Shown here piece after piece: positions 12,761-61,407 of a stretch of 64,000 bases of DNA. A program made the translations under genes and the position numbers. The notes under the pieces were generated by a model that ran no database searches, was not told the origin of the DNA, and saw nothing but the letters and a program-made list of their open reading frames with translations. The DNA comes from Candidatus Omnitrophota bacterium (GTDB lineage: Bacteria; Omnitrophota; Gorgyraeia; Zapsychrales; JAKLDJ01), in NCBI GenBank assembly GCA_022703585.1, contig JAKLDJ010000003.1, positions 142,250-206,249 of the forward strand, in the 5' to 3' direction. Each line of letters starts with the position of its first letter. Position 1 is the stretch's first letter.

Positions 12761-14539
12761 ATGGGTTTAATCCCTGAAGAAACCATTGCGCAGGTAATCG
12801 AGCGCTGTGATATTGCGCAGGTTATCGCAAGCTACCTTCCCTTAAAGCGCGCCGGAAGAAATTTTAAGGCGTGCTGTCCTTTTCATCACGAAAAGACGCC
12901 GTCTTTTGTTGTTAATCCGGATAAGCAGATATTTCACTGTTTCGGGTGCGGTGAAGGCGGCAATGTTATTAAATTTGTGATGCTTCAGGAACGGGTTGAG
13001 TTTCCCGAGGCGGTCAAGATGCTGGCCGCGCCGTTGGGGATTGTGATCACCCAGAATGAGACTCTGGATCCGCAGGCGCTCAGCTTAAAAGAACTTCTCT
13101 ATAAGATTAATGACCTAGCGGCAAACTTTTTTCATAGCACCTTAGCGACGTCAAACACTGAATCGGAAAACGCGCGGCAGTATTTAAAGAAGCGGGACGT
13201 TGCCTTTGAAACGGCCAAAAAACTAAAATTAGGATTCGTTTCCGATAAATGGGATAGTCTGCTGAATCATTTACGGGCTAAGAATATCAGTTTGAGCGTT
13301 ATGGAAAAAGCGGGGTTGATTATCCCCAACGATGGCCGGGACGGTTTTCACGACCGTTTTCGCGACAGAATTATTTTTCCGATCTTTGATATCCGCGGTA
13401 ATTGTATTGCGTTTGGCGGCAGGGCCATGAAAGACGGTGTAGCCAAGTATATGAATTCTCCCGAAACCGCCGTTTATACGAAAGGAAACCACCTCTACGG
13501 TTTTAACCTAGCCAAGGATGGGGTGCGGGAAAAAGATTTTGTTATTGTGGTCGAAGGGTACATGGATTTTCTTATTCCCTTTCAGGCCGGCGTGAATAAT
13601 ATCGTTGCTTCTTTGGGGACGGCGTTAACCGTTGACCAGATTCGTTTGATTCGCCGCTACACCCATAATATTGTGATGCTCTTTGATGCCGACCAGGCCG
13701 GTGAATCGGCGATGATCCGGAGCCTCGACCTTTTGATCGACGAGGGAATGAGTGTTAAAGTGGCGGTTTTGACCTCCGGTGACGATCCGGATTCGTTTGT
13801 ATGTAAATTTGGGGTAGAACGTTTTAACGAGCAGATCACAGCGGCCTTATCGCTCTTTGATTATAAACTAAAAATTTTGATGGGCCAACATAGCCACAAG
13901 ACCGTGGAAGGCAAGGCGCGCATTTCAAGCGAAATGTTACCGACGATTAATCGCTTTGATAATGCGGTTATGAAATTCGGTTATATCAAGAGGCTTTCGG
14001 AAGTTCTCGCGGTTCCGGAGCAGGCATTGCTGATGGACCTTCAAAAGGTGCCGTCTCCAACTACCGGGCGGCAGGAGCCGTCTTTAAAATTCTCGACAAC
14101 AACTGCTCCTGTCCAGACGCGCAATGTGGAGCATAGTCTTTTGAAATTGATGTTGGATGACGGAGATGACCAGAAGAATTTATTTTTGATCAAGCAGGAA
14201 TTGACCGTATTGGATTTTCAAGATGAGCGAATCCGTAGTGTCGTGCAGCAAATATTTCAACTAACGGATGAAGGTAAAAAGATCAGTACCGCTGCCCTGA
14301 TGGGTTGTTTTGACGACAAGCAGATCTTGCAGATTATTTCACAGCTGATGACGCGCGAAGATATTGTAGCCGAAGACAGAGAAAAGATGACCTGGGATTG
14401 TATTAATCGCGTCAAGAATGAGAGGCTTAAAAACATGCGCCGTGACTTGAGCCATCAGATCAAACTTGCGGAAACATCAGGCGATCACGGCCGATTAAGT
14501 GAATTGACACAAAGGTTTAACCAATTACTGAAGGGATAG
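12761..14539 (+). CDS. dnaG: DNA primase
   Basis: 592 aa; zinc-binding CPFHHEKTPSFVVNPDKQIFHCFGCGEGG, TOPRIM domain (VVEGYMDFL ... LFDADQAG). Confidence 0.9.
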   Translation: MGLIPEETIAQVIERCDIAQVIASYLPLKRAGRNFKACCPFHHEKTPSFVVNPDKQIFHCFGCGEGGNVIKFVMLQERVEFPEAVKMLAAPLGIVITQNETLDPQALSLKELLYKINDLAANFFHSTLATSNTESENARQYLKKRDVAFETAKKLKLGFVSDKWDSLLNHLRAKNISLSVMEKAGLIIPNDGRDGFHDRFRDRIIFPIFDIRGNCIAFGGRAMKDGVAKYMNSPETAVYTKGNHLYGFNLAKDGVREKDFVIVVEGYMDFLIPFQAGVNNIVASLGTALTVDQIRLIRRYTHNIVMLFDADQAGESAMIRSLDLLIDEGMSVKVAVLTSGDDPDSFVCKFGVERFNEQITAALSLFDYKLKILMGQHSHKTVEGKARISSEMLPTINRFDNAVMKFGYIKRLSEVLAVPEQALLMDLQKVPSPTTGRQEPSLKFSTTTAPVQTRNVEHSLLKLMLDDGDDQKNLFLIKQELTVLDFQDERIRSVVQQIFQLTDEGKKISTAALMGCFDDKQILQIISQLMTREDIVAEDREKMTWDCINRVKNERLKNMRRDLSHQIKLAETSGDHGRLSELTQRFNQLLKG

Positions 14540-16299: not shown

Positions 16300-16373
16300 G
16301 GGCCCATAGCTCAGACGGTTAGAGCAACTGACTCATAATCAGTGGGTCCCAGGTTCGATTCCTGGTGGGCCCA
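16300..16373 (+). tRNA. tRNA-Met (anticodon CAU; elongator type with G1-C72; could also be a lysidine-modified tRNA-Ile2)
   Basis: GGGCCCA acceptor stem pairs with TGGGCCC, D-arm GCTC/GAGC, anticodon stem ACTGA/TCAGT with loop CTCATAA, T-arm CCAGG-TTCGATT-CCTGG; no encoded CCA. Confidence 0.85.
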
Positions 16374-16650: not shown

Positions 16651-16724
16651 GGGTGCATAGCTCAGCTGGTTAGAGCGCTGCCCTCACATGGCAGAGGTCG
16701 AAGGTTCGAGTCCTTCTGTACCCA
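16651..16724 (+). tRNA. tRNA-Val (anticodon CAC), intact, nested between pieces 2 and 3 of the split tRNA-Val(UAC)
   Basis: GGGTGCA acceptor pairs with TGTACCC (one G.U), D-arm GCTC-AGCTGGTTA-GAGC, anticodon stem CTGCC/GGCAG with loop CTCACAT, T-arm GAAGG-TTCGAGT-CCTTC; 74 nt, no encoded CCA. Confidence 0.8.
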
Positions 16725-17646: not shown

Positions 17647-18108
17647 TTGAGCAAGACACTTGAAATATTTATTGACGGTGCCTGCAAAGGAAATCCCGGC
17701 CCGGCTGCCGTCGGCGTCGTGATTACGGACAACGGAAAGACCGTTAAAAATATTTCCAAGGCTATCGGCCATGCGACGAATAACATTGCCGAATATATGG
17801 CTCTTGTTTATGCCTTGCAGGAGGCGCTTATTCTGCGCGTGGACAAGATCAGGGTTTACACCGATAGTGAGCTTCTCTGCAATCAAGTCAACGGCAGTTA
17901 CAAGATTAAAAATCCGCATCTGAAATTTTTTCATGCTCAGGTCGAGCATTTATTGTCGGGATTTAAGGACGCCCAGATAAGGCATATCCCCCGGGAAAAA
18001 AACCGCGGGGCGGATCGGTTAGCGTCCAAGGCGATATCAAAAGAGCAAGTCAAGGCAACCGCCCTGATGTTTGACATCGGGGAGGAAAGTCCGAGCTCCG
18101 AAGGATGA
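17647..18108 (+). CDS. rnhA: ribonuclease HI
   Basis: TTG start; IFIDGACKGNPGPAAVGVV, NNIAEYMALVYAL and TDSELL catalytic motifs; last about 22 codons are encoded by the 5' part of the RNase P RNA. Confidence 0.85.
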   Translation: MSKTLEIFIDGACKGNPGPAAVGVVITDNGKTVKNISKAIGHATNNIAEYMALVYALQEALILRVDKIRVYTDSELLCNQVNGSYKIKNPHLKFFHAQVEHLLSGFKDAQIRHIPREKNRGADRLASKAISKEQVKATALMFDIGEESPSSEG

Positions 18109-18543
18109 TGCATCCCGGTAATGCGGGACCTTGCTGGCGTTTGGCGGATAGCGGTTAGCGTTTAGAGATTAATTTTTCTATCCGCTATACGCTAAACGCT
18201 CTACGCTGGCATGAGGATTAGAGCCACAGTGACGATGCCCGGCGCTTTACGGCGTGCGGGAGTGAAACGAGCAATCTCTGCATGGAGCAAGGCCGAATAG
18301 GGAAAGACTTCCCGTTTCTACGGGGGACGAGGCCGTCCACCTCGTTATCCTACTTCGCTAAATACTACCGTGTTTAGCTTCGTAGGATTCTACGAAGTCC
18401 AAAGCGAAAGCATTTGGACGAAGTAGAATGATTTCCGGGTAGGCCGCAAGAATCCGGGGAGTAATTTCCGGAGTTAGTCGAATGGTTGCCCGTCTCGCCC
18501 TAAAAAATCGAGATACACAAAACTCGGCTTATTGACTTGCTCT
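18043..18543 (+). ncRNA. rnpB: RNase P RNA, bacterial type A, with extended peripheral helices (about 500 nt)
   Basis: P4 5' strand GGAGGAAAGTCCGAGCTCC (18080-18099) and P4 3' strand ACAAAACTCGGCTTA (18516-18530); 12-bp P1 AGAGCAAGTCAA (18043-18054) pairs with TTGACTTGCTCT (18532-18543); GGAGCAAGGCCGAATAGGGAAAGAC block matches the E. coli GGAGCAAGGCCAAAUAGGGG region. Confidence 0.8.
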
Positions 18544-18636
18544 ATAATTTCTGAAGGGTAGTTTCATGTTTTTGTGTACGTTTATACAGTAGATTAAATT
18601 AAATAGTGGTTAATATTAATTCAAGGAGGAATCACG

Positions 18637-29824: not shown

Positions 29825-30206
29825 TAGAAATCCTGCTGATAATCCACCTTTTCTAATGTCCTGCATTTTTGGCCTCAAGGTTTCTCCTTGTACCTTTTTA
29901 CCCTAAAATCTATCCGAATTTCATAACTAAAATTGGTTATTTTGCCCGGAAGAAAGTCTTGTGAAACCGAATAAATCATCGTTATTTTCGGCTATTAGCG
30001 TCGAGAAAGTAGGCTATTGAGATGAAAACTGGCTAATCTTTGCCCCGTCGGAAAACGTTTTCTCAAAACCCCTTGGGATGCCTTGTTTTACGTTTCGCCC
30101 GTGTTATACTTCAATTGGAAGCGAAGAAGAGTTGAGTAAAGAAACTTATTTCGCGAAAAAGCTAACGCAAAGCCCATAGGATCCCCACCAGCCACGGATG
30201 GGATAG

Positions 30207-30264
30207 CCGGGTTGCCGAAGAAATAAGGGCACGCACTTATTTTAATCGGCAACCCGGTTTTTTT
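30207..30264 (+). terminator. strong rho-independent terminator inside the 1.1-kb non-coding gap (possible 3' end of an sRNA)
   Basis: CCGGGTTGCCGA ... TCGGCAACCCGG 12-bp stem (with an internal AATAAG/CTTATT sub-hairpin) followed by TTTTTTT. Confidence 0.6.
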
Positions 30265-30944
30265 ATTACCCTGTGGGCTCGGTGCGGGAGGCGAGGGGCG
30301 CGCCCTAAAAGGATGAGGCGATGAGAGAGATACTCTATAAAAACTTAACATCGGCAAAAAAAGGCAGACGCGCGATATCGGTATGCGAGAGATCGCAGGG
30401 CAAGGATTGTTCGACGCGCGTCCAGCGTACTTTTGTTTATCTTGTTCGTTCGGGGGTTCTGTCTCGCAAGGAGTTGCCTCAGCCGGTTTTTCATATCGTG
30501 AAGACTTTTAACACCAAGACACGCACGGAAAGATTTTATTTTCGCATGAAGGGTATTTCTTATGTGGTCCAAAATGACTGCTTTTTAGAAGTCAGTTTCT
30601 GCCATTCTTTGCGGATCGATGTCATCCCCAAATTAGTACCGCAGTCGCGGTAAGCCAACCCTTAGGATTTCCAAGAAGTTCAAACTATTTCTCTCGGGTC
30701 GCTAATTTTTTTATTTTCATGATAAATTTCACTATTCCAGGGGTGATTATTGATTGACTATAAAATGCTTTTGTGATAATTTATACGTTCACGGCCACAA
30801 TGCTGTGTCATCAATGATGCGGATAGAGTTTGGCTACGGGAGTATCAACCCTGAGAAATACTCCGGTTTGTCCCTCGACTTTCGCTCGGGATGGTGAGCG
30901 TAAGTCGAACCAAAAGCCGGGGATGAGGCGAAGGGTTTATTGCG

Positions 30945-46416: not shown

Positions 46417-47853
46417 ATGGGAGTCTTTTGGAAGTGGATGACGTTACGTAAAAGAGGATTAAAGCATGAGCTGGCGGTTGCTTTTGGTTTGGTGATTTTG
46501 GCTCTTTTGGTTTTCTTAGGCTATCTTTTTCCGGGCGTATCCTCGGTTTTCCAGACAAAGACGAATCTTAATGTCGTTGCCGGAATAGTATTTCTTATCG
46601 TTGTGCTGGGTTTTTTTCTGCTGACGCAAAAAATTATTGATCCGCTTATCAAGATCAGCAGAGAGGCCAAGAAAATTGCCGAGGGCGATTTAACCCATGA
46701 AGTAAAGCTTTCCGGAGAAGATGAGATTGGTGAGCTGGGGGTGGCCTTAAACCGGATGACCAAGCGCATTAAAGAGAATATGGAGGAGTTAAAAGTTTTT
46801 AGCGAGAAAACCGAGGTCATTAACTCCGAAATTAATAAGCGTATTTTTGTTCTCGCCAGCCTTTTACAGATTAGCAATCTGATTTCTCAGAATGCCAAGT
46901 TGGAAGAAATTATCGAGGCGGGTGTGGACCGATGCTTATCCTCGGGAGAGATGACGTTGGGATGCCTGATTTTACGGGATCGGCAGAGCAACGAATATGT
47001 GGTTAAATCCGTCCATAGCCAAAACAAAGAAGAGCTGATGGCGAAGGGGCTGGGAAATTTTAAGGTTCAGCTGGGGGTCGGTGCTTTGGGTCAAGCCATT
47101 TTGCGCCAGGAAACTATTGTTATTGATAAGAGTTCCGCGGGCACGTACGATACCGAAGAACTGCGGTCGGTTTTTCTTCTAAAAAATGCCTTGGTGGTGC
47201 CGATTGCTTCTCGCGGCAAGATTCACGGCTTATTAATTGCCGGCAACAACAAGGAAAATTTTTCTTGTCATGCGGCAGATAAAGAGCTGATGGACCTTCT
47301 TTCAAAGCAGCTCTCGATTGCCATTGAGAACGATCTTCTGGCGACTAGGGTGGAAAAACTGGAGATTGTCGATAGCCTAACCGGTCTTTACAACAGTACT
47401 TTTGTGGGCGAGCGCTTAAACGAAGAAATCAAAAGGGCCATTCGTTTTCAGAGGCCGTGTGCTTTTGTCCTTTTTACGATTGACCGCTTTAGTGAATTTC
47501 ACGGAGCCTTTGGCCACATTGCGGCGGAGAATGTCCTGATAAAGATCGGGTCAATCCTTAAGGAGAACATCAGCGAGGTCGATAAGGCGGCGCGATTTGG
47601 CGACCATGAATTTGCCTTGATATTGCCGGAGAAAAACAAGCGTCAGTCCATTGAAGTGGCTGACGAAATAAGAAGAAAGATTGAATTTGTTTTTTCGGGA
47701 GAAGATGATCAGCGCAGGAAATTAACCTGCACGGGATCCGTCACCGAAAATCCCGTTGACGGAATTACGGCGGATGAATTGATTTCAAAGGCCAGAGAAA
47801 TTCTCGATTCCGCCAAGAGCCAAGGGGGGAACCGTATTTCTTATAAAATTTAA
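46417..47853 (+). CDS. membrane HAMP-GAF protein with a degenerate GGDEF domain (GDHEF, no I-site)
   Basis: N-terminal two TM helices plus HAMP, GAF, C-terminal RFGDHEFALIL in place of RYGGEEF; RxxD replaced by ISEVD. Confidence 0.75.
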   Translation: MGVFWKWMTLRKRGLKHELAVAFGLVILALLVFLGYLFPGVSSVFQTKTNLNVVAGIVFLIVVLGFFLLTQKIIDPLIKISREAKKIAEGDLTHEVKLSGEDEIGELGVALNRMTKRIKENMEELKVFSEKTEVINSEINKRIFVLASLLQISNLISQNAKLEEIIEAGVDRCLSSGEMTLGCLILRDRQSNEYVVKSVHSQNKEELMAKGLGNFKVQLGVGALGQAILRQETIVIDKSSAGTYDTEELRSVFLLKNALVVPIASRGKIHGLLIAGNNKENFSCHAADKELMDLLSKQLSIAIENDLLATRVEKLEIVDSLTGLYNSTFVGERLNEEIKRAIRFQRPCAFVLFTIDRFSEFHGAFGHIAAENVLIKIGSILKENISEVDKAARFGDHEFALILPEKNKRQSIEVADEIRRKIEFVFSGEDDQRRKLTCTGSVTENPVDGITADELISKAREILDSAKSQGGNRISYKI

Positions 47854-47905
47854 TTCCGAAATTGAGACTTAAGCAAGAGATTGAACCGATAAGGCGGATG
47901 GTTGG

Positions 47906-48355
47906 ATGACTCACTACAAGAAAGTCACGAATAAGTATTTAGGGGAACTTCTTCTCGAGCGGGGCGTAATTAATCACGAACAGCTGAAGATGGCTGTTGC
48001 CTACCAGCAAGATAAGGGCGGGCTGATTGGCGAAGTCTTAGTTGAGCTCAAATTTGTCACCGAGGAGGATATTGCCCAGGCCTTGACCTGCCAATACGGC
48101 TTTCCCTATCTTCCGCTTACGAATTATGAAATTGATGCCGAGGTCATTAATACGATTCCGGAAAATGTGTGTAAACAGTTTTGCCTTATCCCGATCGACA
48201 AAATCGGCAAAAGCCTGACCCTTGCCATGGCCAATCCCCTAAACGTTCAGGCCATCGAAGATGTGGAGCTGATCACGGGCTGTACCGTTCAAACCTTCGT
48301 CAGCACGGCGACGGATATCCGAAGGTCGATCGCGAAATACTACAAATCGAAATAA
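47906..48355 (+). CDS. standalone GspE-N (T2SSE_N / MshEN-like) domain protein
   Basis: 149 aa; YLGELLLERGVINHEQLKMAVAYQQ fits the T2SSE_N helix motif; paralog of 52086..52547 and of the PilB N-termini. Confidence 0.6.
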   Translation: MTHYKKVTNKYLGELLLERGVINHEQLKMAVAYQQDKGGLIGEVLVELKFVTEEDIAQALTCQYGFPYLPLTNYEIDAEVINTIPENVCKQFCLIPIDKIGKSLTLAMANPLNVQAIEDVELITGCTVQTFVSTATDIRRSIAKYYKSK

Positions 48356-48404
48356 GCCCGTTCATTTCTTGCCCTGATTCTCGACGAAAGAGGTTTTTAG
48401 AGAG

Positions 48405-50132
48405 ATGTTTTCCCTTAAAGAGCGCCTAAAAGAGATCCTGATCCGGGATAATATAATCAAACAAGAAGACCTTGACCGCGCCCTTGAAGAACAAAAGCTG
48501 CGAGGTGGAGAGCTTAGTAAAATCCTGGTTAAGATGGGCCTCATCAACGAGGAGGAGCTCACGCTTTTGTTAAGCCAGGGCTTGGGGATGCCGCCGATTG
48601 ATATTTCACGTTTTAAAATTGACCCCGAAGTCGTAAAAATTATTCCCTCCGAAATCGCTGTTCATTATCAAATTATACCCATTTCAAAAATCGGCGATAG
48701 TCTGACCCTGGCGATGGCCGATCCTCTTAATATATTCGCGATTGACAATGTTAAAGCTCTGACTGGCCTTGAAATCAATCCTATCATCGGCAACTCCCAG
48801 GATATTTTGCAGGCAATCGATACCTACTATACGGTTGATGCGCATGCCAAGTTCGAAGAAATTATTAAAGATATCGGAGATACGGAGGATCTCGAACTAA
48901 TTAAGGACGGGGGAACGGATTTAGGCAGAGAAGACCTTGAGAATCTTACCCAGGAAGCCCCGGTTATAAAACTGACCGATGCGGTTATCAAACAGGCGAT
49001 TGCGGCTAAGGCGAGTGACATCTTTATCGAACCTTTGGAGAAATCTGTACGGATCCGATACCGTGTTGATGGCATTATCCAGGAGGTGGACCGGGTTTCA
49101 AAATTCTTTCACTCTCCGGTCATTTCCAGGATAAAAATTATGTCCAATCTTGATATTTCCGAACACCGCCTGCCGCAGGACGGTAGATTTAAAATTCGGC
49201 TTGAGAACGGCCAGGAGGTTGATTTTCGCGTGAATGTCCTGCCGTCGATTATCGGAGAGAAGGCGGTCTTAAGAGTTTTGGATAAAACTTCTGCCATGCT
49301 GGATATCGCAAAACTTGGTTTTAGCGAAAATTACTTGAATATATTGAAACAGTGCTCTACGAAACCCCACGGTATGATTCTCACCTGCGGCCCGACGGGT
49401 TCAGGCAAGACCACGACTCTCTATTCGATTCTTAAATTCATCGATTCTCCCGAAAAGAATATTGTTACCGTTGAAGACCCCGTCGAGTATGAGATGAAAG
49501 GCATTAGCCAGGTTAACGTACGCCCCGAGGTTGGCTTGACGTTTTCGGCGAGTTTGCGTTCTATTTTGCGCCAAGACCCGGACGTTATTCTCATTGGCGA
49601 AATCCGTGATTTCGAAACGCTGGACATCGCGGTTAAATCTGCCTTGACAGGACATCTGGTTCTAAGTTCGTTGCACACGACGACCTCCGCTGGTTCGGTT
49701 ATCCGCATGATGAATATGGGTGTGGAACCTTTTCTGATTTGTTCTTCTGTTCTCGCGATTGTTGCCCAAAGACTTTTGCGTAAAATCTGCAGCAATTGTA
49801 TCGAGGCCTATCCTATGCCCGAGGTTTTAGTTAAGAAGGTCGGATTTGACCGCCTATTTCCCGGCAAAGAACCGAAAATATTCCGGGGCAGAGGCTGCAA
49901 GATATGTTCAAATAAAGGCTACAGCGGCCGGGTAAGTATTGCTGAAATTCTGGTTTTGGCAAATTCAGTCAAAGATTTGGTAATGAGCAGGGCAGGGGAG
50001 TATCGCATTAAAGAGGCAGGTCGCAAGGAAGGCATGATTACAATGAGGGAAGACGGCCTGATGAAAGTCAAAGAAGGCTTAACTACCCTGGAAGAAGTTT
50101 TGAGGGTTACTGCCCCCGACGAATCTATGTAG
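48405..50132 (+). CDS. pilB: type IV pilus assembly ATPase, PilB/GspE family, with an N-terminal MshEN-like domain
   Basis: N-terminal RLKEILIRDNIIKQEDLDRALEEQ; Walker A GPTGSGKTTTLYS; C-terminal tetracysteine CSNC...CKIC. Confidence 0.85.
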   Translation: MFSLKERLKEILIRDNIIKQEDLDRALEEQKLRGGELSKILVKMGLINEEELTLLLSQGLGMPPIDISRFKIDPEVVKIIPSEIAVHYQIIPISKIGDSLTLAMADPLNIFAIDNVKALTGLEINPIIGNSQDILQAIDTYYTVDAHAKFEEIIKDIGDTEDLELIKDGGTDLGREDLENLTQEAPVIKLTDAVIKQAIAAKASDIFIEPLEKSVRIRYRVDGIIQEVDRVSKFFHSPVISRIKIMSNLDISEHRLPQDGRFKIRLENGQEVDFRVNVLPSIIGEKAVLRVLDKTSAMLDIAKLGFSENYLNILKQCSTKPHGMILTCGPTGSGKTTTLYSILKFIDSPEKNIVTVEDPVEYEMKGISQVNVRPEVGLTFSASLRSILRQDPDVILIGEIRDFETLDIAVKSALTGHLVLSSLHTTTSAGSVIRMMNMGVEPFLICSSVLAIVAQRLLRKICSNCIEAYPMPEVLVKKVGFDRLFPGKEPKIFRGRGCKICSNKGYSGRVSIAEILVLANSVKDLVMSRAGEYRIKEAGRKEGMITMREDGLMKVKEGLTTLEEVLRVTAPDESM

Positions 50133-50140
50133 GTTGTTCT

Positions 50141-51853
50141 ATGGCTAAGACTTTAAAAGAGAGAATCATCGATGCCCTTATTGAACTTAAGCATATAAAA
50201 AGGGAAGATCTCGACGTTGCCCTTCAGCTCCAGAAGACCAAAGGCATCGGCTTGGACGCGGCCCTCATCGAGAAGGGGTTGATTAGCGAGCAAGAATTAT
50301 TGATTCTCCTGGTCAAGGAGCTTAATATCCCGCCTATTAATCTTGCCAAGTATAAAGTAGAGCCCCACCTTAAAGAAATTGTTCCCGAACGTATCGCGCG
50401 GCAATACCATGTCTTGCCTGTTTCCGAATTAGGGCACACAATCACGGTGGCCTTATCTGATCCTTTAAATATTTTTGCCATTGATGATCTAAAAAGTATT
50501 ACCGGCAGGGATATCGACTTGACGATTACCACCGACTCCGAAATTATGCGCGCCATTGATAATTATTACGGGCTGAAGAATCAAACCAGTGTTGCGGAAG
50601 CTGCCAAAAACATGCCCGATGATGAGACGGGAGCACTCGAGGTTATCCAGGAAACGGAGATGATCACAGATATGTCCACCGACGACGGCGAAGAAGCGCC
50701 GATTGTCCGGATGGTCGATCTTATCATCAAGGAGGCCTTGAAACAGCGATCCTCGGATATTCACATGGAGCCGACCACCGATAAAATGCGCATTCGATAC
50801 CGCATCGACGGCATTCTCCAGGATGTATTGACTGTTCCCAAGGCAAATCAGAATGCGGTGGTTGTCAGAATAAAAATCATGTCGCACTTGGACATTACCG
50901 AGACGCGTGTCCCTCAGGACGGCCGGTTCAAAATGAGATTAGCTAATAAGGAAGTGGATTTTCGTGTTTCCTCGTTGCCGACGACTTATGGCGAAAAGAT
51001 TGTTATGCGTATTCTGGATAAGGAAAGTTTATCAATCGGCTTAGACGGCTTGGGGTTTTTTCAAGACCAGATGGAAATCTTTAAAGAATCGATTTCAAAA
51101 CCTTTCGGCATGATTTTAGTGACAGGCCCGACGGGAAGCGGTAAATCAACCACCCTGTATTCCATTATTAATCAGCTCAATACCGTTGAAAGAAATATTA
51201 TTACGATTGAGGATCCGGTCGAGTATCTTATTGACGGCCTGACTCAGATACAGTCGAAGGCGGAGATTGGCCTCACCTTTGCCGCGGGTCTGCGGGCCAG
51301 CTTAAGACAAAGCCCCGACGTGGTTATGGTGGGAGAAATCCGTGATTCCGAGACAGCGGATATTGCCATCAAGGCTTCTTTGACCGGGCAGCTGGTTTTT
51401 TCTACGCTGCATACCAATGATGCTGCCGGGGCCTTGACGCGTTTGGTCGATATGGGGATTGAGCCTTTCTTGGCAGCCTCCAGTTTGGTTATGGTCTGTG
51501 CCCAGCGGTTATGCCGTCGTATTTGCGCAAAATGTAAAGAACCTGTTAAAATTCCCGAGCGGGTATTAAAAGAGATGAAATACAAGGGGGATCCCGACAC
51601 CGTTTTTTACCACGGAAAAGGGTGTGCTGCCTGTCGAAATACCGGTTACAAAGGACGCATGGGCATTGTGGAACTTCTGGTTATCGATGATGCTATCCGG
51701 GGGATGCTTATTAACGGTGCGTCTTCTCATGAGATTAAAAAATATGCCATGGAGCAGAATCATATGGCGACACTTTGGGATGACGCTTTAAGAAAGTTCA
51801 ATCTTGGCCTCACGACCCTGGAAGAGGTTTTAAGGGTAACTTCTTCGGAGTAG
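50141..51853 (+). CDS. second PilB/GspE-family ATPase (paralog; has the N-terminal domain, so not PilT)
   Basis: 570 aa; LKERIIDALIELKHIKREDLDVALQLQ, Walker A GPTGSGKSTTLYS, tetracysteine CAKC...CAAC. Confidence 0.8.
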   Translation: MAKTLKERIIDALIELKHIKREDLDVALQLQKTKGIGLDAALIEKGLISEQELLILLVKELNIPPINLAKYKVEPHLKEIVPERIARQYHVLPVSELGHTITVALSDPLNIFAIDDLKSITGRDIDLTITTDSEIMRAIDNYYGLKNQTSVAEAAKNMPDDETGALEVIQETEMITDMSTDDGEEAPIVRMVDLIIKEALKQRSSDIHMEPTTDKMRIRYRIDGILQDVLTVPKANQNAVVVRIKIMSHLDITETRVPQDGRFKMRLANKEVDFRVSSLPTTYGEKIVMRILDKESLSIGLDGLGFFQDQMEIFKESISKPFGMILVTGPTGSGKSTTLYSIINQLNTVERNIITIEDPVEYLIDGLTQIQSKAEIGLTFAAGLRASLRQSPDVVMVGEIRDSETADIAIKASLTGQLVFSTLHTNDAAGALTRLVDMGIEPFLAASSLVMVCAQRLCRRICAKCKEPVKIPERVLKEMKYKGDPDTVFYHGKGCAACRNTGYKGRMGIVELLVIDDAIRGMLINGASSHEIKKYAMEQNHMATLWDDALRKFNLGLTTLEEVLRVTSSE

Positions 51854-52085
51854 AGAGCATTTGTTTCTCAAAATTCTCGGCATTGCCGCGAAATTGTTTC
51901 ATTCCGGAATTCGGAAAAATAACGGGAACGATGTAGTGCTTGATATTATCGATGTTTTAGGTAAAATAAAGGATAAGTGTTAACCAGCTGTTAAAGGGCT
52001 TTGTGTCGGTGGCGTTGATGATGGGTAGTATGCCTTCTGCGGCTGTCGAAAGATGATTTTAAAGAAGTAAACAAAGGAGATTTTT

Positions 52086-52547
52086 ATGGCTTTTTCGAGA
52101 AGGGATCTTATTTCTAAAAAGCAACTTATGGGGCAGATATTGATTAAGCGTAATCTTATCACGGCGGATCAATTGAAAGAGGCCTTAGAGATACAGAAAA
52201 AAGAAAATGGATTTGTCGGTGAGATCTTGACCAGGCTTGGCTATGTTACGGAGAGAGATATCGTGGTTGCGTTGATCGTGCAATGCGGTTTTCCTTACAT
52301 TGCTGTGAATAAATACGAGATTGATGCTAAGGTTATTCAGTTGATTGACGAAGAAACTGCCCGGAAATATCACGTAATTCCCTTAGACCGGGTTGGTGAT
52401 GTTTTAAGCGTGGTGATGGCGAATCCCTTGGATTTGGCGATGATTGAAGAATTGGAGCAGCTGACGAAATGTAAAATTGCGACGTTTATCGCTACTAAAG
52501 CGGAAATTGATGAAGCGATTGCGATACGGTATAAGTCCAAGAAATAG
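52086..52547 (+). CDS. second standalone GspE-N (T2SSE_N / MshEN-like) domain protein
   Basis: 153 aa; LMGQILIKRNLITADQLKEALEIQ; same architecture as 47906..48355. Confidence 0.6.
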   Translation: MAFSRRDLISKKQLMGQILIKRNLITADQLKEALEIQKKENGFVGEILTRLGYVTERDIVVALIVQCGFPYIAVNKYEIDAKVIQLIDEETARKYHVIPLDRVGDVLSVVMANPLDLAMIEELEQLTKCKIATFIATKAEIDEAIAIRYKSKK

Positions 52548-52694
52548 GATTGGGGAACATTTATTCCGGTCGGGGAAGAGAAATATTTGGGATTTTTGTG
52601 GATGGCGCGGAAAGAGAGATTCGCCGGAGAATGAGGAAAAGTTTTTGTGCAGAACTGTATTTCTTTATAAAAGTCCAGTAAAGGAGAAGTAATA

Positions 52695-53903
52695 ATGGCG
52701 ACATTTCGGTATGTTGCGAAAGACCAGAATGCAAAAACTCTCAATGGCAAAATCGTGGCCGAGAGCCAGGCGGCTGTTGTCGATGAGTTAAGAAAAAGAA
52801 AATTGATCATTATTTCTGTCGCGGAAGTTAGAGAGTCCAGTTTTAAAGGGATGTCTTTCGGCGGGAAGAGGGTGAAAGAGGATGACCTTGTTATTTTTGC
52901 CAGACAGCTCTCCACCCTGGTTGATTCGGGCGTTCCTTTACTGCAAGGTTTGGACGCGCTAGAAGAGCAAATCACGCATCCGTATTTCAAAAGTGTCATC
53001 GGCAATGTCAAAGACGATATTGAGGTCGGCAGCAGTCTTTCGGGGGCCCTCGCGAAACATCCCAATGTCTTTGATGTCCTTTTTGTCAATATGGTTAGAG
53101 CGGGCGAAGCCGGAGGTATGTTGAGTGCTATCCTCGACAGAGTCGCGAGTTATAAAGAAAAAAGTTTAAAGTTGAAACGTAAAGTAAAAGCGGCCATGGT
53201 TTATCCCATTGTTGTTATTTTCATGGCCATGGCCATTACCCTGTTTCTCCTGGTGACGGTTGTTCCTACTTTTTCGGCGATTTTCGAGTCTTTAGGTACC
53301 GATTTGCCTCTTCCCACCCAGATACTTCTCGCAGTGAGCGGAGGGTTAAGAAAGTGGTTTCTTCTCTACGCCGTTGCAGGGGTTGCCCTGGGCTTTGGTT
53401 TTGTTCTCTATAAACAGACGGATGCGGGTGAGGTGAGAATCGATAAAATAAAATTAAAATTACCCGTTGTCGGTGAATTGATACGCAAAGTGGCCGTGAG
53501 CCGATTCAGCCGGACCCTTGCAACTTTAACCCAGAGCGGCGTTCCCATCTTGGCGTCTTTAGACATTGTTGGTAAGACGTGCGGCAACAGGGTTTTGGAA
53601 ATTGCCGTCAACAACGTCAAGAATAATGTCAGAGAAGGGGAGAGTATTGCTCCGACCTTAGCCAAGAGCGGTGTCTTTCCGGTTATGGTAACCAGGATGA
53701 TTTCCGTCGGAGAGAAAACGGGCGAAATGGAAAAGATGCTTTCGAAAATAGCCGATTTCTACGATGACCAGGTTGATGCAGCTGTTGCGGGCTTGACCAG
53801 CGTTATCGAACCCGTTATTATCGGATTTCTCGGTGTAGTTGTCGGCGGCATTGTCATATCTTTGTTCATGCCGATTTTAACTATCGTAACCAAGATTAAA
53901 TAG
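52695..53903 (+). CDS. pilC: type IV pilus inner-membrane platform protein PilC (GspF family)
   Basis: 402 aa, two T2SS-F repeats, three TM helices. Confidence 0.9.
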   Translation: MATFRYVAKDQNAKTLNGKIVAESQAAVVDELRKRKLIIISVAEVRESSFKGMSFGGKRVKEDDLVIFARQLSTLVDSGVPLLQGLDALEEQITHPYFKSVIGNVKDDIEVGSSLSGALAKHPNVFDVLFVNMVRAGEAGGMLSAILDRVASYKEKSLKLKRKVKAAMVYPIVVIFMAMAITLFLLVTVVPTFSAIFESLGTDLPLPTQILLAVSGGLRKWFLLYAVAGVALGFGFVLYKQTDAGEVRIDKIKLKLPVVGELIRKVAVSRFSRTLATLTQSGVPILASLDIVGKTCGNRVLEIAVNNVKNNVREGESIAPTLAKSGVFPVMVTRMISVGEKTGEMEKMLSKIADFYDDQVDAAVAGLTSVIEPVIIGFLGVVVGGIVISLFMPILTIVTKIK

Positions 53904-59382: not shown

Positions 59383-60408
59383 GTGTTTGGAGCAAAGAAA
59401 AACATAAAAAAAGGTGAAATATCCCTTGGGGTTGATATTGGCAATTTTTCGGTCAAGGTTGCCCAACTAAGCTCTAAGGACAACAAATTTACTCTCGAAG
59501 GTTTTGGGTATTCCAAGATCAATACGGCTAAAACAGACGGTGTTCTCGAAGCCTTAAAGAGTGCCTGCGCGGAGGCCAAGCTCAGCGAGCGCCGGGCGGT
59601 TGTCGCTGTGCCCTCCCAGGGAGTTATTGTCCGCTATCTTATGCTTCCCACTATGGGTGAAGAAGAATTAAGGAAGGCTATGGAATTCGAGATCGAACGG
59701 TATGTCCCTTTTGATCGCAAAGACGTGGCGAGTGATTATTTAGTGATTAAAGAAAATTCTGATTCACGGAACATGAAAGTTCTTCTGGTTGCTGCCAAGA
59801 AGGAATTTGTGGATTCCCGGGTGAGGGTCCTTAAAGACGCCGGCCTGGAACCGGAGGTTGTTACGATTGACTCGATTATTTTAAAGAATATATTCCAGAT
59901 TAATTATTCCGACAAGAAAGAGAAAACAGTAGGTCTTTTGAATATCGGTTCCAAGATATCCAGCATCAATATTGTCCGGGGCTCTACTTCCTACTTTATG
60001 AGGGATGTGCAGCTGGGGGGCGATAATATCACCCAGCTTCTTAAGGAGAAATTTGATATTGCGCCCGAGGAAGCGGAGAAAATAAAGTGTAATTTGACTC
60101 TCGATGACCGGGAGAAGTTTAAGATTATTGAACCGGTTTTGGGAAATCTTCTTAACGAGGTCTACCTCTCATTTGATTATTACGAGAGCGAGTTTGGGAT
60201 GGTTGTGGATGAGGTCTTAGTCAGCGGAGGTACGGCAAAACTGGCCTGGTTGGCTAATTTCTTAAAAGAGAACCTGAATCGTGAGATTTCGGTCTTAAAT
60301 TCCATCAAAAACGTTACTGTTTCGCCTATTGTTTCTCAACAAAGGCTGGATTTTGTCTTTCCCTCCCTGGCAGTTCCTTTAGGGCTGGCACTGGAAAATT
60401 TTAATTAA
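59383..60408 (+). CDS. pilM: type IV pilus assembly protein PilM (actin-like ATPase fold)
   Basis: GTG start; ISLGVDIGNFSVKVAQL and the remainder of the actin/FtsA fold. Confidence 0.8.
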   Translation: MFGAKKNIKKGEISLGVDIGNFSVKVAQLSSKDNKFTLEGFGYSKINTAKTDGVLEALKSACAEAKLSERRAVVAVPSQGVIVRYLMLPTMGEEELRKAMEFEIERYVPFDRKDVASDYLVIKENSDSRNMKVLLVAAKKEFVDSRVRVLKDAGLEPEVVTIDSIILKNIFQINYSDKKEKTVGLLNIGSKISSINIVRGSTSYFMRDVQLGGDNITQLLKEKFDIAPEEAEKIKCNLTLDDREKFKIIEPVLGNLLNEVYLSFDYYESEFGMVVDEVLVSGGTAKLAWLANFLKENLNREISVLNSIKNVTVSPIVSQQRLDFVFPSLAVPLGLALENFN

Positions 60409-60497: not shown

Positions 60498-60526
60498 TTG
60501 ACAACCGGGTTTCTGTGTGTTATACT
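60498..60526 (+). promoter_or_regulatory. consensus sigma70 promoter (TTGACA-N17-TATACT) driving the riboswitch-containing transcript
   Basis: TTGACA 60498-60503, TATACT 60521-60526. Confidence 0.55.
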
Positions 60527-60577
60527 TTTTGTGATAGTTAATGGTTTGGACAATTTAAGAAGATAGCATCATTGATA

Positions 60578-60680
60578 AGGGCAAACCTCGCGAAAGCGTG
60601 GGGCGCAAAACTCTAGAGCCCACACTCCGCAAAAGGAACAGCGGAACGGGTAGTCAGGTGCCAATGATCCGGTTTGATTG
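60578..60680 (+). promoter_or_regulatory. candidate c-di-GMP-I (GEMM) riboswitch aptamer
   Basis: AAGGGCAAACC-UCGCGAAAGCGUG-GGGCGCAAAAC ... CACUCCGC matches the Vc2 aptamer pattern GGGCAAACC-AUUCGAAAGAGUG-GGACGCAAAGCC ... CACUCCGG. Confidence 0.6.
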
Positions 60681-60689
60681 GATTATAGC

Positions 60690-60721
60690 CTGTTCTCTAG
60701 AGGGGAGAACAGGTTTTTTTA
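60690..60721 (+). terminator. rho-independent terminator, probable expression platform of the riboswitch
   Basis: CCTGTTCTC-tagaggg-GAGAACAGG followed by TTTTTTT. Confidence 0.7.
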
Positions 60722-60731
60722 TTAAAACCGC

Positions 60732-60760
60732 TTGACACAGAAAGGAGGGGTTGATAGTAT
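60732..60760 (+). promoter_or_regulatory. second sigma70 promoter (TTGACA-N17-TAGTAT/TATAAAAT) immediately upstream of pilA
   Basis: TTGACA 60732-60737, TAGTAT 60755-60760. Confidence 0.5.
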
Positions 60761-60925
60761 AAAATTGCAATAAAAGGGATCCGAGCCAAGTAGAAAAACT
60801 CTTTAAAGGATAGGGTTAAGAAAAGAGCGAATCGCTATAATAAATTCGTCATACAGTTTTCTTGACCTTCCGGATGAGAGTATCTGCTGAAAGCTTAATC
60901 ATGATCCGGAAAGGGGGTTTTTAAG

Positions 60926-61333
60926 ATGAATAGAAAAGGTTTTACTCTAGTAGAAATCATGATCGTCGTTGCGATTATCGCTCTGTTAGCGGCGATTGCC
61001 ATTCCTAACTTGCTTCGTGCCAGGCTGTCAGCGAACGATGCCTTAGCTACGAGCACGTTAAGGACCATGTCAACCGCAGCAGAGTCATATGCAACTGTCA
61101 ACCAGGGTAATTATCCTACTGAAGTAACGTCGTTGACTAGCGCAGATCCGAAGTTTTTGAGCAAGAATTACTGCGATTACTCAGCTTCGACTAATCCATA
61201 TGCAGGGTATTATTATACTTGCGAGTTTGGTACGGCTGAGTATACGATTACGGCTACTCCGGTATCTTTCAATAAGACAGGTACAACGGTATACACTGTC
61301 CAGACCGGTGGTGTCTTAACACCGCCCAATTAA
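60926..61333 (+). CDS. pilA: type IV major pilin
   Basis: MNRKGFTLVEIMIVVAIIALLAAIAIPNL class-III signal peptide and hydrophobic alpha1 helix; 135 aa. Confidence 0.85.
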   Translation: MNRKGFTLVEIMIVVAIIALLAAIAIPNLLRARLSANDALATSTLRTMSTAAESYATVNQGNYPTEVTSLTSADPKFLSKNYCDYSASTNPYAGYYYTCEFGTAEYTITATPVSFNKTGTTVYTVQTGGVLTPPN

Positions 61334-61375
61334 GGACGAGTCGTAAGCGTAGGGTAATTGCTGAAGTTTTTGTTA

Positions 61376-61407
61376 AAAGGGGGCTTTCAAAAGCCCCCTT
61401 TTAATTT
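61376..61407 (+). terminator. rho-independent terminator after pilA
   Basis: AAAGGGGGCTTT-ca-AAAGCCCCCTTT followed by TAATTTTT. Confidence 0.7.

Follow-up and report, generated by a model that had tools for sequence, protein, structure and literature searches.

The question raised by this locus is whether the RNA between a pilM gene and a type IV pilin-like gene of an Omnitrophota genome senses c-di-GMP and, if so, in which direction it would act on pilin expression. A sequence-only reading of the window (i.e. the complete stretch of 64 kb that was analysed) had placed a candidate c-di-GMP-I riboswitch with its own promoter and terminator at this position, and had suggested that c-di-GMP-dependent read-through adds to a constitutive pilin expression. 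We compared the element with RNA families, promoter and terminator models, predicted folds and the orthologous loci of related genomes. The features that were recovered are listed in Table 1.

Table 1. Features of the pilM-pilin intergenic region and its flanking genes (positions in the window)
Feature	Position	Strand	Description
pilM	59383-60408	+	Pfam PilM_2, 211.8 bits; last gene of the upstream pilus-assembly operon
Promoter P1	60498-60526	+	-35 TTGACA 60498-503, 17-nt spacer, TG 60518-19, -10 TATACT 60521-26
c-di-GMP-I (GEMM-I) aptamer	60570-60666	+	RF01051 match; 97 nt
Aptamer helix P1	60570-74 with 60662-66	+	CAUUG with CAAUG; register from the RF03167 alignment
Aptamer two-bp helix	60581-60582 with 60605-60606	+	G60581-C60582 with G60605-C60606
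Aptamer GNRA hairpin	60586-60601	+	GAAA loop 60592-95
Aptamer third helix	about 60609-60659	+	
Ligand-contact equivalents	60580, 60607, 60661	+	G60580 (G20), A60607 (A47), C60661 (C92); Rfam consensus alignment, Vc2 numbering
CUCUAGAG, first copy	60611-60618	+	forms the base of the third aptamer helix on its 5' side; candidate for antiterminator pairing with 60695-702
Linker hairpin	60664-60686	+	AUGAUCCGGU-UUG-AUUGGAUUAU, 10 bp; seen in minimum-energy folds
Intrinsic terminator	60687-60720	+	12-bp stem: 5' arm 60687-98, loop 60699-703, 3' arm 60704-15
Promoter-like site P2	60732-60760	+	-35 TTGACA 60732-37, N17, TG 60752-53, -10 TAGTAT 60755-60
Pilin leader	60761-60925	+	a block of the AAGCUUAAUC...GGUCCGGAAAGGAGG type ahead of the start codon is conserved
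Type IV pilin-like gene	60926-61333	+	135 aa; prepilin GFTLVE N-terminus (N-methylation motif)

Genetic context of the element

The flanking genes are those that the sequence-only reading had named: pilM upstream, and downstream, from 60926 onward, a pilin ORF that matches the Pfam N_methyl and NCBIfam TIGR02532 models above cut-off and the PilA and GspG models partially. This ORF is the candidate major pilin and would be the gene under riboswitch control. It is preceded by a ribosome-binding site (AAAGGGGG, 60910-17) about 190 nt downstream of the riboswitch terminator and followed by a strong terminator of its own (61372-61405). Alignment of 10 pilin leaders revealed a conserved -10-like box (GCTATAAT, 60834-41); RNAalifold returned no consensus pairs past promoter P2 for these 10 leaders, which align poorly. 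A scan found no terminator between the pilM stop codon (60408) and promoter P1 (60498), so that transcripts of the pilM operon probably also enter the riboswitch; in three related loci (L082, L083 and L161) the -35 box begins at most about 15 nt from the stop codon of pilM. An ORF of 45 aa with a GTG start (60598-60735) that overlies the aptamer was not taken as a gene, because it lies wholly inside the structured RNA and terminator.

The degenerate GGDEF protein and the MshEN-like domains that had been noticed in the locus were both recovered: a HAMP-GAF-GGDEF protein (46417-47853) with the degenerate active-site motif RFGDHEF, and four MshEN domains. MshE-type c-di-GMP motifs scored above cut-off in the PilB-like ATPase and in a stand-alone MshEN protein of the cluster, and the MshEN ATPases of the locus are predicted c-di-GMP receptors. 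Elsewhere in the window, a second GEMM-like RNA occurs at 30147-30223, which is without the tetraloop hairpin and whose aptamer and terminator (30147-30266) are mutually exclusive. The gene downstream of it encodes a 110-aa protein with only 7 homologues and a confident all-beta model (pLDDT 88), for which we found neither a Pfam hit nor a significant PDB fold match.

Identity and anatomy of the aptamer

The Rfam c-di-GMP-I family (RF01051) matches 60570-60665 of the plus strand over the entire model (1-87) with 51.4 bits (E 4e-7 for the 64-kb window against 4227 families), the curated gathering threshold being 35 bits. The cmsearch with RF01051 that the sequence-only reading had put forward as a check on its aptamer claim was thus positive. 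The GAAA-tetraloop hairpin is present as described. The 54-nt string that had been recognised as aptamer, at 60578-60635, is real, but it is located at 60577-60630 and comprises merely the 5' two thirds of the complete element. Two assignments within it did not hold: the 'CACUCCGC 3' segment' likened to that of Vc2 is the 5' strand of the third helix plus its apical part and not the equivalent of the Vc2 3' segment, and the aptamer copy of CUCUAGAG forms the base of the third helix on its 5' side and is no part of a 3' region.

The pairing of the aptamer is supported by covariation: within an alignment of 11 orthologues and 22 pairs, 93.8% of the cells were paired and 8 pairs were changed on both sides; none of 500 shuffles did as well, and slid controls were 26-50% paired. 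Helix P1 (5 bp) covaries among the orthologous aptamers. The tetraloop is GUAA, GCAA or GUGA in the relatives, and two mismatches, one of them U-U and the other A-G, occur in the aptamer of the window. In type 1 GEMM RNAs the GNRA tetraloop docks into a receptor within the third helix; the receptor motif of the Rfam consensus (CUAAG...UAUG) was not recognisable in the third helix of the window. Nearest-neighbour folding never predicted helix P1 in a scan over transcript lengths, as is expected of a ligand-dependent helix, and the bound state is thus outside those folds. By family membership we assign the element to the c-di-GMP-I riboswitches (GEMM-I, RF01051) as a genuine class I member, with c-di-GMP as the predicted ligand; its E-value, together with the conservation of its position and structure in related genomes, puts it beyond chance.

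The equivalents of G20, A47 and C92 in the window are canonical for c-di-GMP, where the alignment columns of A47 and C92 are presumed ones, assigned partly from the Vc2 sequence. The contact roles of these three nucleotides have been described for the class (PMC6140456). Two related ligand classes were considered: GEMM-Ib aptamers, which bind 3',3'-cGAMP and are characterised by A at position 20 (PMC6140456), and the c-di-GMP-I-GGC variant (RF03167), which would sense another ligand. The latter is suggested by the finding that RF03167 is the clan winner for the window when ranked by E-value and that several relatives exceed its cut-off (59.6-65 bits). The score of the window itself is 49.9 bits, however, under the gathering threshold of 59 bits. 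A literature search found no usable definition of the variant, the text of the defining paper being without one, and we therefore took as its mark G for A at A47 (GACGCGAA versus GACGCAAA), as inferred from the two Rfam consensus lines: among the conserved nucleotides of the pocket, A47 alone distinguishes RF01051 from RF03167. The window (GGCGCAAAA at this site) and all 11 relatives have A and not G directly after CGC/CAC (CGCAAA or CACAAA in the relatives). Membership of the GGC variant was rejected on the score and on this nucleotide, and the cGAMP reading on G60580, since G20 discriminates against cGAMP in Vc2 (PMC6140456); among the relatives, A occupies the place of G20 in L003 alone. 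We therefore consider it very improbable that the aptamer senses anything else than c-di-GMP.

Conservation in related Omnitrophota loci

A module consisting of promoter P1, aptamer, terminator, promoter P2, a leader of about 150-170 nt and a pilin gene recurs in 14 Omnitrophota loci, and in three further loci of the phylum the aptamers are disrupted by insertions. Aptamers that score over the Rfam cut-off were found upstream of the pilin gene in L002, L003, L081, L082, L083, L087, L161, L162, L163, L165 and L166, and those of the distant loci L012, L013 and L089 were recovered with a purpose-built model. The riboswitch keeps its place before the pilin gene irrespective of its upstream neighbour, which may be pilM, pilC, a further pilin gene or an IS200-type transposase gene. 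Where pilM is followed by hisG (L001, L084 and L168) there is no riboswitch at that position; the sequence of L086 ends 86 nt past pilM. The element thus travels with the pilin gene and not with pilM. These results establish the family to which the element belongs, its anatomy, its conservation and its link with the pilin gene.

Promoter P1, linker and terminator

The TTGACA-N17-TATACT promoter of the sequence-only reading was confirmed as the best site of the 2.7 kb that was scanned (11/12 consensus matches with an upstream TG), and would start transcription near 60533. P1-type sites (TTGACA/TTGAAA-N16-17-TGnTATACT) are found in 11/11 close orthologous loci as well as in the distant L012, L013 and L089. 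The same holds for the intrinsic terminator after the aptamer, which had likewise been named correctly: in the window it ends in a run of seven U (60714-20; -17.3 kcal/mol) and contains the second copy of CUCUAGAG (60695-702), and comparable terminators follow the aptamer in all 11 close loci and in the three distant ones, L002 and L003 having a tandem pair. The linker hairpin begins with the 3 terminal nucleotides of the 3' strand of helix P1 and therefore competes with that helix. The linkers between aptamer and terminator in the relatives measure 8-50 nt and have no common hairpin; a role of the hairpin as conserved anti-P1 element was rejected, because it is not conserved in the relatives with short linkers.

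Complementarity between terminator and aptamer

The sequence CUCUAGAG occurs exactly twice in the 64-kb window (60611-18 and 60695-702), and had been proposed to provide an antiterminator pairing. In the best fold of transcript 60570-60703 (-44.8 kcal/mol), which is also the best fold without terminator in the window, the two copies are indeed paired with each other, in combination with CAGGU (60655-59) paired to GCCUG (60688-92). This part of the proposal stands, but the range of lengths is narrow: the antiterminator is the minimum-energy fold only around a transcript end at 60704, and the terminator is equally stable by 60708. The antiterminator of the window is weak in its pairing gain too, which is borderline, as 8% of shuffled arms do as well. 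Nor is the CUCUAGAG:CUCUAGAG pairing conserved, the relatives using a different complementarity. In most of them the 5' arm of the terminator is complementary to the 3' strand of the GNRA hairpin and to the CGC/CAC of the binding pocket.

When transcripts were cut before the 3' arm, the 5' arm paired into the aptamer in 9/11 loci, and the best arm-aptamer duplex involved the same aptamer segment in 8/11; the minimum-energy folds of L082 and L003 contain no such pairing. The antiterminator is clear in L081, L083, L163 and L165 and in the distant L013, L012 and L089. Genomes whose PilM proteins are just 33-69% identical share the arm sequence CCUAUUCUU, which remains complementary to AAGGRURGG, with U opposite each variable purine and with G-C/A-U swaps in the distant loci. 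The pairing gain over shuffled arms has a combined p of about 0.001, for loci that are not independent. Two other pairings were rejected for the window: GGAACAG (60635-41) with CUGUUCU (60690-96), for which the forced fold reaches -41.9 versus -45.0 for the CUCUAGAG fold, and the relatives' type via the 3' strand of the GNRA hairpin, which yields merely -6.8 kcal/mol.

Probable direction of the switch

With its last nucleotide at 60666, the aptamer stops short of the terminator, which begins at 60687; the two do not overlap and are both present in the full-length minimum-energy fold. Because aptamer and terminator can coexist, the architecture corresponds to a Cd1-type off switch, the distinction resting on the non-overlap that separates the Cd1 off switch from the Geobacter pilM on switch (PMC9262584). 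We consider it reasonably probable that c-di-GMP promotes termination and that low c-di-GMP leads to read-through into the pilin gene. The c-di-GMP-dependent read-through that had been suggested is retained in this form, with the direction specified: it would occur when c-di-GMP is low. That c-di-GMP is bound, which way the switch acts and how much promoters P1 and P2 each contribute are inferred from these data, and the mechanism would be as follows. Besides transcripts initiated at P1, a strong promoter with an extended -10 box, those of the unterminated pilM operon would probably enter the element as well; the 97-nt aptamer would fold first and the self-contained terminator would emerge about 20 nt later. 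With c-di-GMP bound, the aptamer would remain folded, the terminator would form and transcription would stop near 60720, leaving a short RNA of about 190 nt. When the ligand is absent, one strand of the aptamer would pair with the 5' arm of the terminator (in the window via CUCUAGAG 60611-18:60695-702 and CAGGU:GCCUG), and the polymerase would pass P2 and the leader of roughly 165 nt into the pilin gene, adding to the output of P2.

An off switch on a pilin gene is biologically unexpected, because c-di-GMP usually promotes type IV pili, the riboswitch of pilA1 is 'on' and the MshEN ATPases are predicted c-di-GMP receptors. The same riboswitch might instead act as an on switch, in which c-di-GMP blocks termination and high c-di-GMP raises pilin transcription. 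This would fit pilus ATPases activated by c-di-GMP, for which the motifs in the PilB-like ATPase and the stand-alone MshEN protein speak, as well as the class II switch of Clostridioides difficile pilA1, which promotes pili (PMC6366702); the competition of the linker hairpin with helix P1 moreover implies that ligand binding alters the structure just upstream of the terminator. That hairpin is not conserved, however, the terminator is a complete hairpin about 20 nt apart from the aptamer, and the formation of helix P1 frees no sequence that could pair with one or the other arm of the terminator. In on switches of this class, aptamer and terminator have to be mutually exclusive (PMC9262584), as is the case at 30147-30266 and not here, and we regard the on reading as distinctly unlikely. 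Slightly less unlikely, and still doubtful, is that promoter P1, aptamer and terminator form an autonomous small RNA gene with essentially constitutive termination, where, in place of a gated read-through, c-di-GMP would alter how stable the RNA of about 190 nt is or how it acts in trans, or transcription through the unit would interfere with P2. The near-consensus promoter and strong terminator with a second conserved promoter directly after them, the thermodynamic dominance of the terminator at full length with a narrow antiterminator window in this genome, and the tandem terminators of L002 and L003 are consistent with such a gene, and precedents exist: the Vc2 riboswitch is reported to control the stability of an upstream small RNA (bioRxiv 10.1101/617340), and Bc1, with dual terminators, showed no c-di-GMP response in transcription assays (PMC11218506). 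That the unit is strictly linked with a pilin gene in all loci, rearranged ones included, points to a role in cis, and the conserved complementarity of terminator arm and aptamer would be purposeless if termination were constitutive.

Promoter P2 and its Shine-Dalgarno-like spacer

The second TTGACA-N17 promoter, reported earlier at the same position, was recovered by the promoter scan (10/12 consensus matches with TG, -10 TAGTAT). A TTGACA-N16-18-TAnnAT site is located 141-171 nt before the pilin ATG in 10/11 close loci, and is present in the distant loci too. As P2 is conserved downstream of the terminator, the switch may govern only part of pilin transcription. The spacer of P2 contains AGAAAGGAGG (60739-48), a perfect extended Shine-Dalgarno-like sequence: AAAGGAGG has a single occurrence in the 64-kb window, and the spacer sequence is the sole AAAAGGAGG-type site therein. 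The combination TTGACA-N1-8-AAGGAGG was found in 12/168 loci, in 11 of those at the P2 position. A mini-ORF after this sequence, starting 0-2 nt past GGAGG and stopping within 2-5 codons, was considered and rejected, because its codons are more simply read as the -10 box.

Since AGAAAGGAGG sits within the P2 spacer, it would be present only on transcripts from upstream. This raises the possibility, in our view quite unlikely, that the riboswitch is the master gate of pilin expression and not a minor add-on to a putatively constitutive promoter. Only RNAs that read through from P1 or from the pilM operon would carry the conserved AGAAAGGAGG(UGAU) (60739-48), which would bind 30S subunits like the cry3A STAB-SD and so protect, or define by processing, the 5' end of an abundant pilin mRNA. 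Some or all of the apparent P2 transcripts would then be stabilised products of c-di-GMP-gated read-through. The STAB-SD of B. thuringiensis cry3A is a Shine-Dalgarno-like site far upstream of the start codon, on a transcript from a distant promoter, that binds 30S subunits and blocks 5'-3' decay (PMC4113751). The likeness of AGAAAGGAGG to it is one of sequence only, and here the site lies inside a well-conserved -35/-10 promoter. In a weaker form of the idea, the P1-riboswitch unit may regulate P2 by transcriptional interference.

Comparison with known riboswitches

A close parallel to the off switch proposed above is Cd1 (Cdi-1-3) upstream of the C. difficile flgB operon, which has an aptamer of the same class and acts on transcription. 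In Cd1, aptamer and terminator can coexist and compete with an antiterminator whose formation opens up a portion of the binding pocket; the expression platform is long, and termination yields a short RNA that is stable (PMC9262584, PMC6366702). Cd1 controls flagellar genes from a single-promoter 5' UTR and has no detectable helix P1, whereas the element of the window has a covarying P1 of 5 bp, a pilin target and a second conserved promoter between terminator and gene, its direction being the predicted one. The pilM riboswitch of Geobacter (GEMM-Ib) shares the GEMM-I fold, the type IV pilus cluster and the control by transcription termination (PMC9262584). It is a cGAMP-binding on switch with A at position 20 and a terminator that overlaps the aptamer, and is located upstream of pilM; the element described here has G20, its terminator is separate, and it follows pilM and precedes the pilin gene. 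Cdi-2-4 of C. difficile is also a c-di-GMP riboswitch directly upstream of a major type IV pilin gene (pilA1) and regulates by termination and read-through (PMC6366702), but it is an on switch with a class II aptamer, and no second promoter has been reported for it. Bc1 of Bacillus thuringiensis combines a class I aptamer with a long platform carrying rho-independent terminators (PMC11218506); its dual terminators resemble the tandem ones of L002 and L003. Bc1 differs in that it has a translational component and did not respond to c-di-GMP when assayed for transcription; in the window there is a single terminator, and the pilin ribosome-binding site is about 190 nt beyond it.

For riboswitch biology, the element is an ordinary class I member. 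The deeply conserved two-promoter layout with the Shine-Dalgarno-like P2 spacer is its only unusual aspect.

Implications for Omnitrophota

Type IV pili are thought to be central to the lifestyle of the Omnitrophota, an uncultivated phylum. The element would place RNA-level sensing of c-di-GMP directly on the candidate major pilin gene of these organisms, in the same cluster as predicted protein-level receptors of c-di-GMP, the MshEN-type ATPases. As an RNA of 100 nt that can be probed in vitro, it offers a testable entry to second-messenger control in organisms that are unculturable.

A canonical c-di-GMP-I aptamer

The whole 64-kb window was scanned with all Rfam 15 families at curated thresholds, which gave four matches in total. 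The c-di-GMP-I model (RF01051, gathering score 35 bits) matched 60570-60665 (+) over its full length with 51.4 bits (E 4e-7), which bears out the sequence-only reading that a c-di-GMP-I riboswitch lies between pilM and the major pilin gene. The string quoted in that reading is present, at 60577-60630, and constitutes only the 5' part of the aptamer, which is closed by the pairing of CAUUG (60570-74) with CAAUG (60662-66) in helix P1 (not to be confused with promoter P1). Under E-value ranking the clan winner was RF03167 (c-di-GMP-I-GGC), yet its 49.9 bits remain below its own cut-off of 59. The two consensus sequences differ at a single conserved pocket position, directly 3' of GACGC, where RF01051 has A and RF03167 has G; this base is A60607 in the window and an A likewise in all relatives, and membership of the GGC variant was rejected on both grounds. 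We infer that 'GGC' refers to this A-to-G base; no definition of the name was found in the accessible literature.

The base corresponding to G20 of Vc2 forms a pair with one ligand guanine, and GEMM-Ib switches, which bind cGAMP, arise when it is replaced by A (PMC6140456). The window has G60580 at this position, and together with A60607 (A47 in Vc2) and the junction base C60661 (C92), which directly precedes the 3' strand of helix P1 and is invariant in the alignment, this marks the aptamer, by sequence, as a canonical c-di-GMP sensor. In the aptamer of one related locus (L003, 5092-5187) G20 is replaced by A (AAAAGUAAAC), as is characteristic of GEMM-Ib switches that bind cGAMP or are bispecific.

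Eleven aptamers were aligned with MAFFT and the Rfam-derived helices were added by hand. Standard pairs occupied 93.8% of the cells and both-sided changes occurred in 8 of the 22 pairs (among them three in the GNRA hairpin and, in the two-bp helix, a G-C to U-A change); none of 500 shuffles matched these values, and sliding the partners by 1-3 columns brought pairing down to 26-50%. The fold of the leader (60533-60725) was 3.9 standard deviations better than that of shuffles.

Organization of the regulatory region

Features of the pilin riboswitch region and of the second GEMM-like RNA (window positions)
Feature	Position	Strand	Characteristics
Second GEMM-like RNA	30147-30266	+	own-model match at 30147-30223
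Conserved 110-aa ORF	30321-30653	+	downstream of second GEMM-like RNA
pilM	59383-60408	+	Pfam PilM_2, 211.8 bits
Promoter P1	60498-60526	+	TTGACA-N17-TATACT, upstream TG, 11/12 consensus matches
c-di-GMP-I aptamer, complete	60570-60666	+	closed by 5-bp helix P1
Intrinsic terminator hairpin	60687-60715	+	12-bp G+C-containing stem, then seven T
Promoter P2	60732-60760	+	TTGACA-N17-TAGTAT with TG (consensus scan)
Pilin-like ORF	60926-61333	+	prepilin N-methylation motif

The interval between pilM and the pilin-like ORF measures 517 nt. Both promoters that had been proposed from the sequence alone were recovered by a consensus scan, in which promoter P1 was the top site of the 2.7 kb scanned; the terminator, proposed at 60690-60721, was found as a hairpin of -17.3 kcal/mol followed by a T-run. 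The order of the parts (promoter P1, aptamer, terminator(s), P2, leader, pilin) is common to all 11 close loci and is the same in three distant ones. In the close loci promoter P1 reads TTGACA, TTGAAA or TTGCAA, then N16-17 and TGnTATACT, the aptamer is followed by one intrinsic terminator (two in tandem in L002 and L003), P2 reads TTGACA-N16-18-TAnnAT in 10 of the 11, 141-171 nt 5' of the ATG, and the long pilin leader ends in a GGAAAGGAGG-type ribosome-binding site. L003 has a degenerate P2 -35 box. Since a terminator scan found none between pilM and promoter P1 in the window, and since the P1 -35 box abuts the pilM stop codon in several loci, transcripts of the pilM operon probably enter the switch as well.

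The tandem terminators (L002 5179-5290, L003 5187-5280) recall the dual terminator of Bc1; because both have the same CCUAUUC / CCUGUUC 5' arm, a single aptamer strand could antagonise both. The pilin leader of the window further contains a conserved -10-like box, GCTATAAT (60834-60841, ~85 nt 5' of the ATG, without recognisable -35; GGTATTAT or GGTATAAT in relatives), a candidate for a third promoter or for an RNA motif. The 9-mer AUGAUCCGG occurs where helix P1 meets the riboswitch linker hairpin (60664-60672) and again directly 5' of the pilin ribosome-binding site (60901-60909). The latter copy closes a hairpin with UCCGGAU (60870-76). A single further copy exists within 64 kb, at 13712, and long-range pairing in read-through transcripts is possible.

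Conservation and linkage to the pilin gene

The PilM of the window is 100% identical to a protein from a Candidatus Omnitrophota metagenome-assembled genome and has ~45 orthologues at 51-69% identity, whose loci were retrieved from collections of genomes and metagenomes and through exact look-up. An Rfam aptamer of clan CL00126 was found above threshold directly 3' of pilM in L002, L003, L081, L082, L083, L087, L161, L162 and L163. In L165 and L166 the aptamer, also above threshold, does not adjoin pilM, being separated from it by two other pilin genes and by an IS200-type transposase gene, respectively, yet it lies ~450-520 nt upstream of a pilin gene. No aptamer was found 3' of pilM in L001, L084 and L168, where hisG follows pilM. 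A covariance model of our own, built from 11 of the Rfam-detected aptamers, also recovered the element in distant Omnitrophota loci (PilM ~33% identical), 210-320 nt upstream of a pilin gene with a near-identical N-terminus, whether 3' of pilC (L012) or 5' of pilin and pilM (L013). The element is thus upstream of the pilin gene wherever pilM is located and therefore belongs to the former.

In three more distant orthologous loci (L164 4540-4770, L166 4780-4950, L167 4395-4670) the pilin-associated aptamer is broken by small insertions: GC-rich palindromes (CCCGCCA-N8-10-TGGCGGG), an inverted repeat (ccgttagaga...tctctaacgg) and an AT-rich hairpin flanked by GGGGCA and CAAAAC. They resemble miniature mobile or REP-like elements that have inserted into loops and junctions of the aptamer.

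Proposed switching direction

The terminator starts at 60687, downstream of the aptamer end at 60666, and the full-length minimum-energy fold contains both. In the experimentally dissected pair of this class, the on switch (Geobacter pilM) forms either its aptamer or its terminator, whereas the off switch (Cd1) can form both at once, in competition with an antiterminator that disrupts part of the pocket (PMC9262584). The coexistence is as in Cd1 rather than as in Geobacter, and an antiterminator was therefore sought. For transcripts ending before the terminator 3' arm, minimum-energy folding pairs the 5' arm with the aptamer in 9 of 11 loci, and in 8 of 11 the best duplex falls on one common segment, composed of the last GNRA-loop bases, the 3' strand of the same hairpin and CGC/CAC beside A47. 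Unusually for a terminator, the arm sequence CCUAUUCUU is kept across genomes down to 33% PilM identity; it has a U facing each variable purine of AAGGRURGG, and distant loci show G-C/A-U swaps (AAAGAG with CUCUUU vs AAAGAA with UUCUUU). Relative to arms shuffled in place, a significant energy gain was obtained for only part of the loci (p ~0.001 by Fisher's combination, only indicative as the loci are related).

In the window itself the pairing with the GNRA-hairpin strand is weak (-6.8 kcal/mol). The best terminator-free fold (-44.8 kcal/mol for 60570-60703) pairs the two CUCUAGAG copies (60611-18 with 60695-702), adds CAGGU (60655-59) with GCCUG (60688-92), breaks the third-helix base and takes up nearly the whole terminator 5' arm. 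The CUCUAGAG pairing suggested earlier from the sequence is thereby part of that fold, with modest support, as 8% of shuffled arms did equally well. In a transcript-length scan this antiterminator was the minimum-energy fold only near an end at 60704, with the terminator level by 60708; it would have to work as a kinetic trap. Next to an on switch, a constitutively terminated small RNA, ending at the terminator irrespective of ligand, is the other rival. We consider the off switch, the best-supported mechanism in the window, moderately probable there and hold it with greater confidence for the family.

A Shine-Dalgarno-like sequence within P2

Riboswitches of the c-di-GMP kind beside pilus genes are already established: a c-di-GMP class II 'on' switch precedes pilA1 in C. 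difficile (PMC6366702) and a GEMM-Ib cGAMP 'on' switch precedes pilM in Geobacter (PMC9262584). Our literature search found no paper linking Omnitrophota with a c-di-GMP-I riboswitch. As the existing Rfam model detects it, the element is a further case of a known class and not a new class; its unusual feature is the conserved P2 between terminator and gene.

The P2 spacer holds the extended Shine-Dalgarno-like sequence AGAAAGGAGG (60739-60748), complementary to the 3' end of 16S rRNA, which is kept at this position in nearly all loci and lengthened to ...GGUGAU in many relatives (often ...GGAGGUGAU). The single occurrence of AAAGGAGG in the 64-kb window is within P2, and TTGACA-N1-8-AAGGAGG is found in 12 of 168 fetched loci, 11 times at the P2 spot. 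No usable start codon follows AGAAAGGAGG, and because the predicted P2 start is farther downstream, the sequence would be present only on read-through transcripts. By its resemblance to STAB-SD, the stabiliser of cry3A mRNA (PMC4113751), it may have a similar function on these transcripts; alternatively, it may be a regulator binding site. The perfectly conserved -35 and -10 boxes argue for P2 as a real promoter, and the STAB-SD reading is therefore rated possible but unproven.

A second GEMM-like RNA and other RNAs

A second GEMM-like RNA (30147-30223) scored 30.7 bits with our own covariance model and only 21.4 bits with Rfam (to RF03167), with nothing at Rfam thresholds. It retains helix P1, CGCAAA and the third helix, is without the entire GNRA hairpin (GC-UAAC-GC, in AAAAAGC-UAAC-GCAAAGCC...), and is preceded by the same -10 box, TGTTATACT, as the pilin riboswitch. 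Because the 5' arm of its terminator (CCGGGUUGCCGA) is the aptamer's own 3' strand, its predicted architecture is of the on type. Two other genomes (L169 2512-2589, L170 2435-2511) have kept the RNA upstream of the gene for the same 110-aa protein, with one compensatory G-C to A-U change in the terminator. Identities of this protein in two relatives are 88% and 51%; a search of 5.8 billion proteins gave only 7 homologues, and there is no Pfam match; AlphaFold predicts an all-beta fold (pLDDT 88), for which no significant PDB fold match was found. It is clade-restricted and possibly under cyclic-dinucleotide control.

The window also encodes a class A bacterial RNase P RNA (18042-18547, +; 142.8 bits), 506 nt long against 367 model positions, with insertions of ~76 and 90 nt in two helices, and near it two tRNA genes (16300-16373, 16651-16724).

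The pilus cluster

The 17 kb upstream encode PBP2 and RodA, as well as PilC, PilO, a secretin, a coiled-coil/TPR protein and PilM. The degenerate GGDEF protein and MshEN-like domains noticed in the sequence-only reading were both retrieved, all within 46417-53903: a HAMP-GAF-GGDEF protein that lacks an RxxD site and has the degenerate active site RFGDHEF, two stand-alone MshEN proteins (149 and 153 aa) and two paralogous PilB-like ATPases with MshEN domains. Two of the four MshEN proteins (47906-48355 and 48405-50132) passed the cut-off for the NCBIfam MshE c-di-GMP motif. Judged from these motifs, a single pilus cluster would read c-di-GMP through proteins as well as through RNA. With an 'off' switch the protein and RNA layers would act in opposite senses on pilus production; either the arrangement is then homeostatic or the sign itself is open to doubt.
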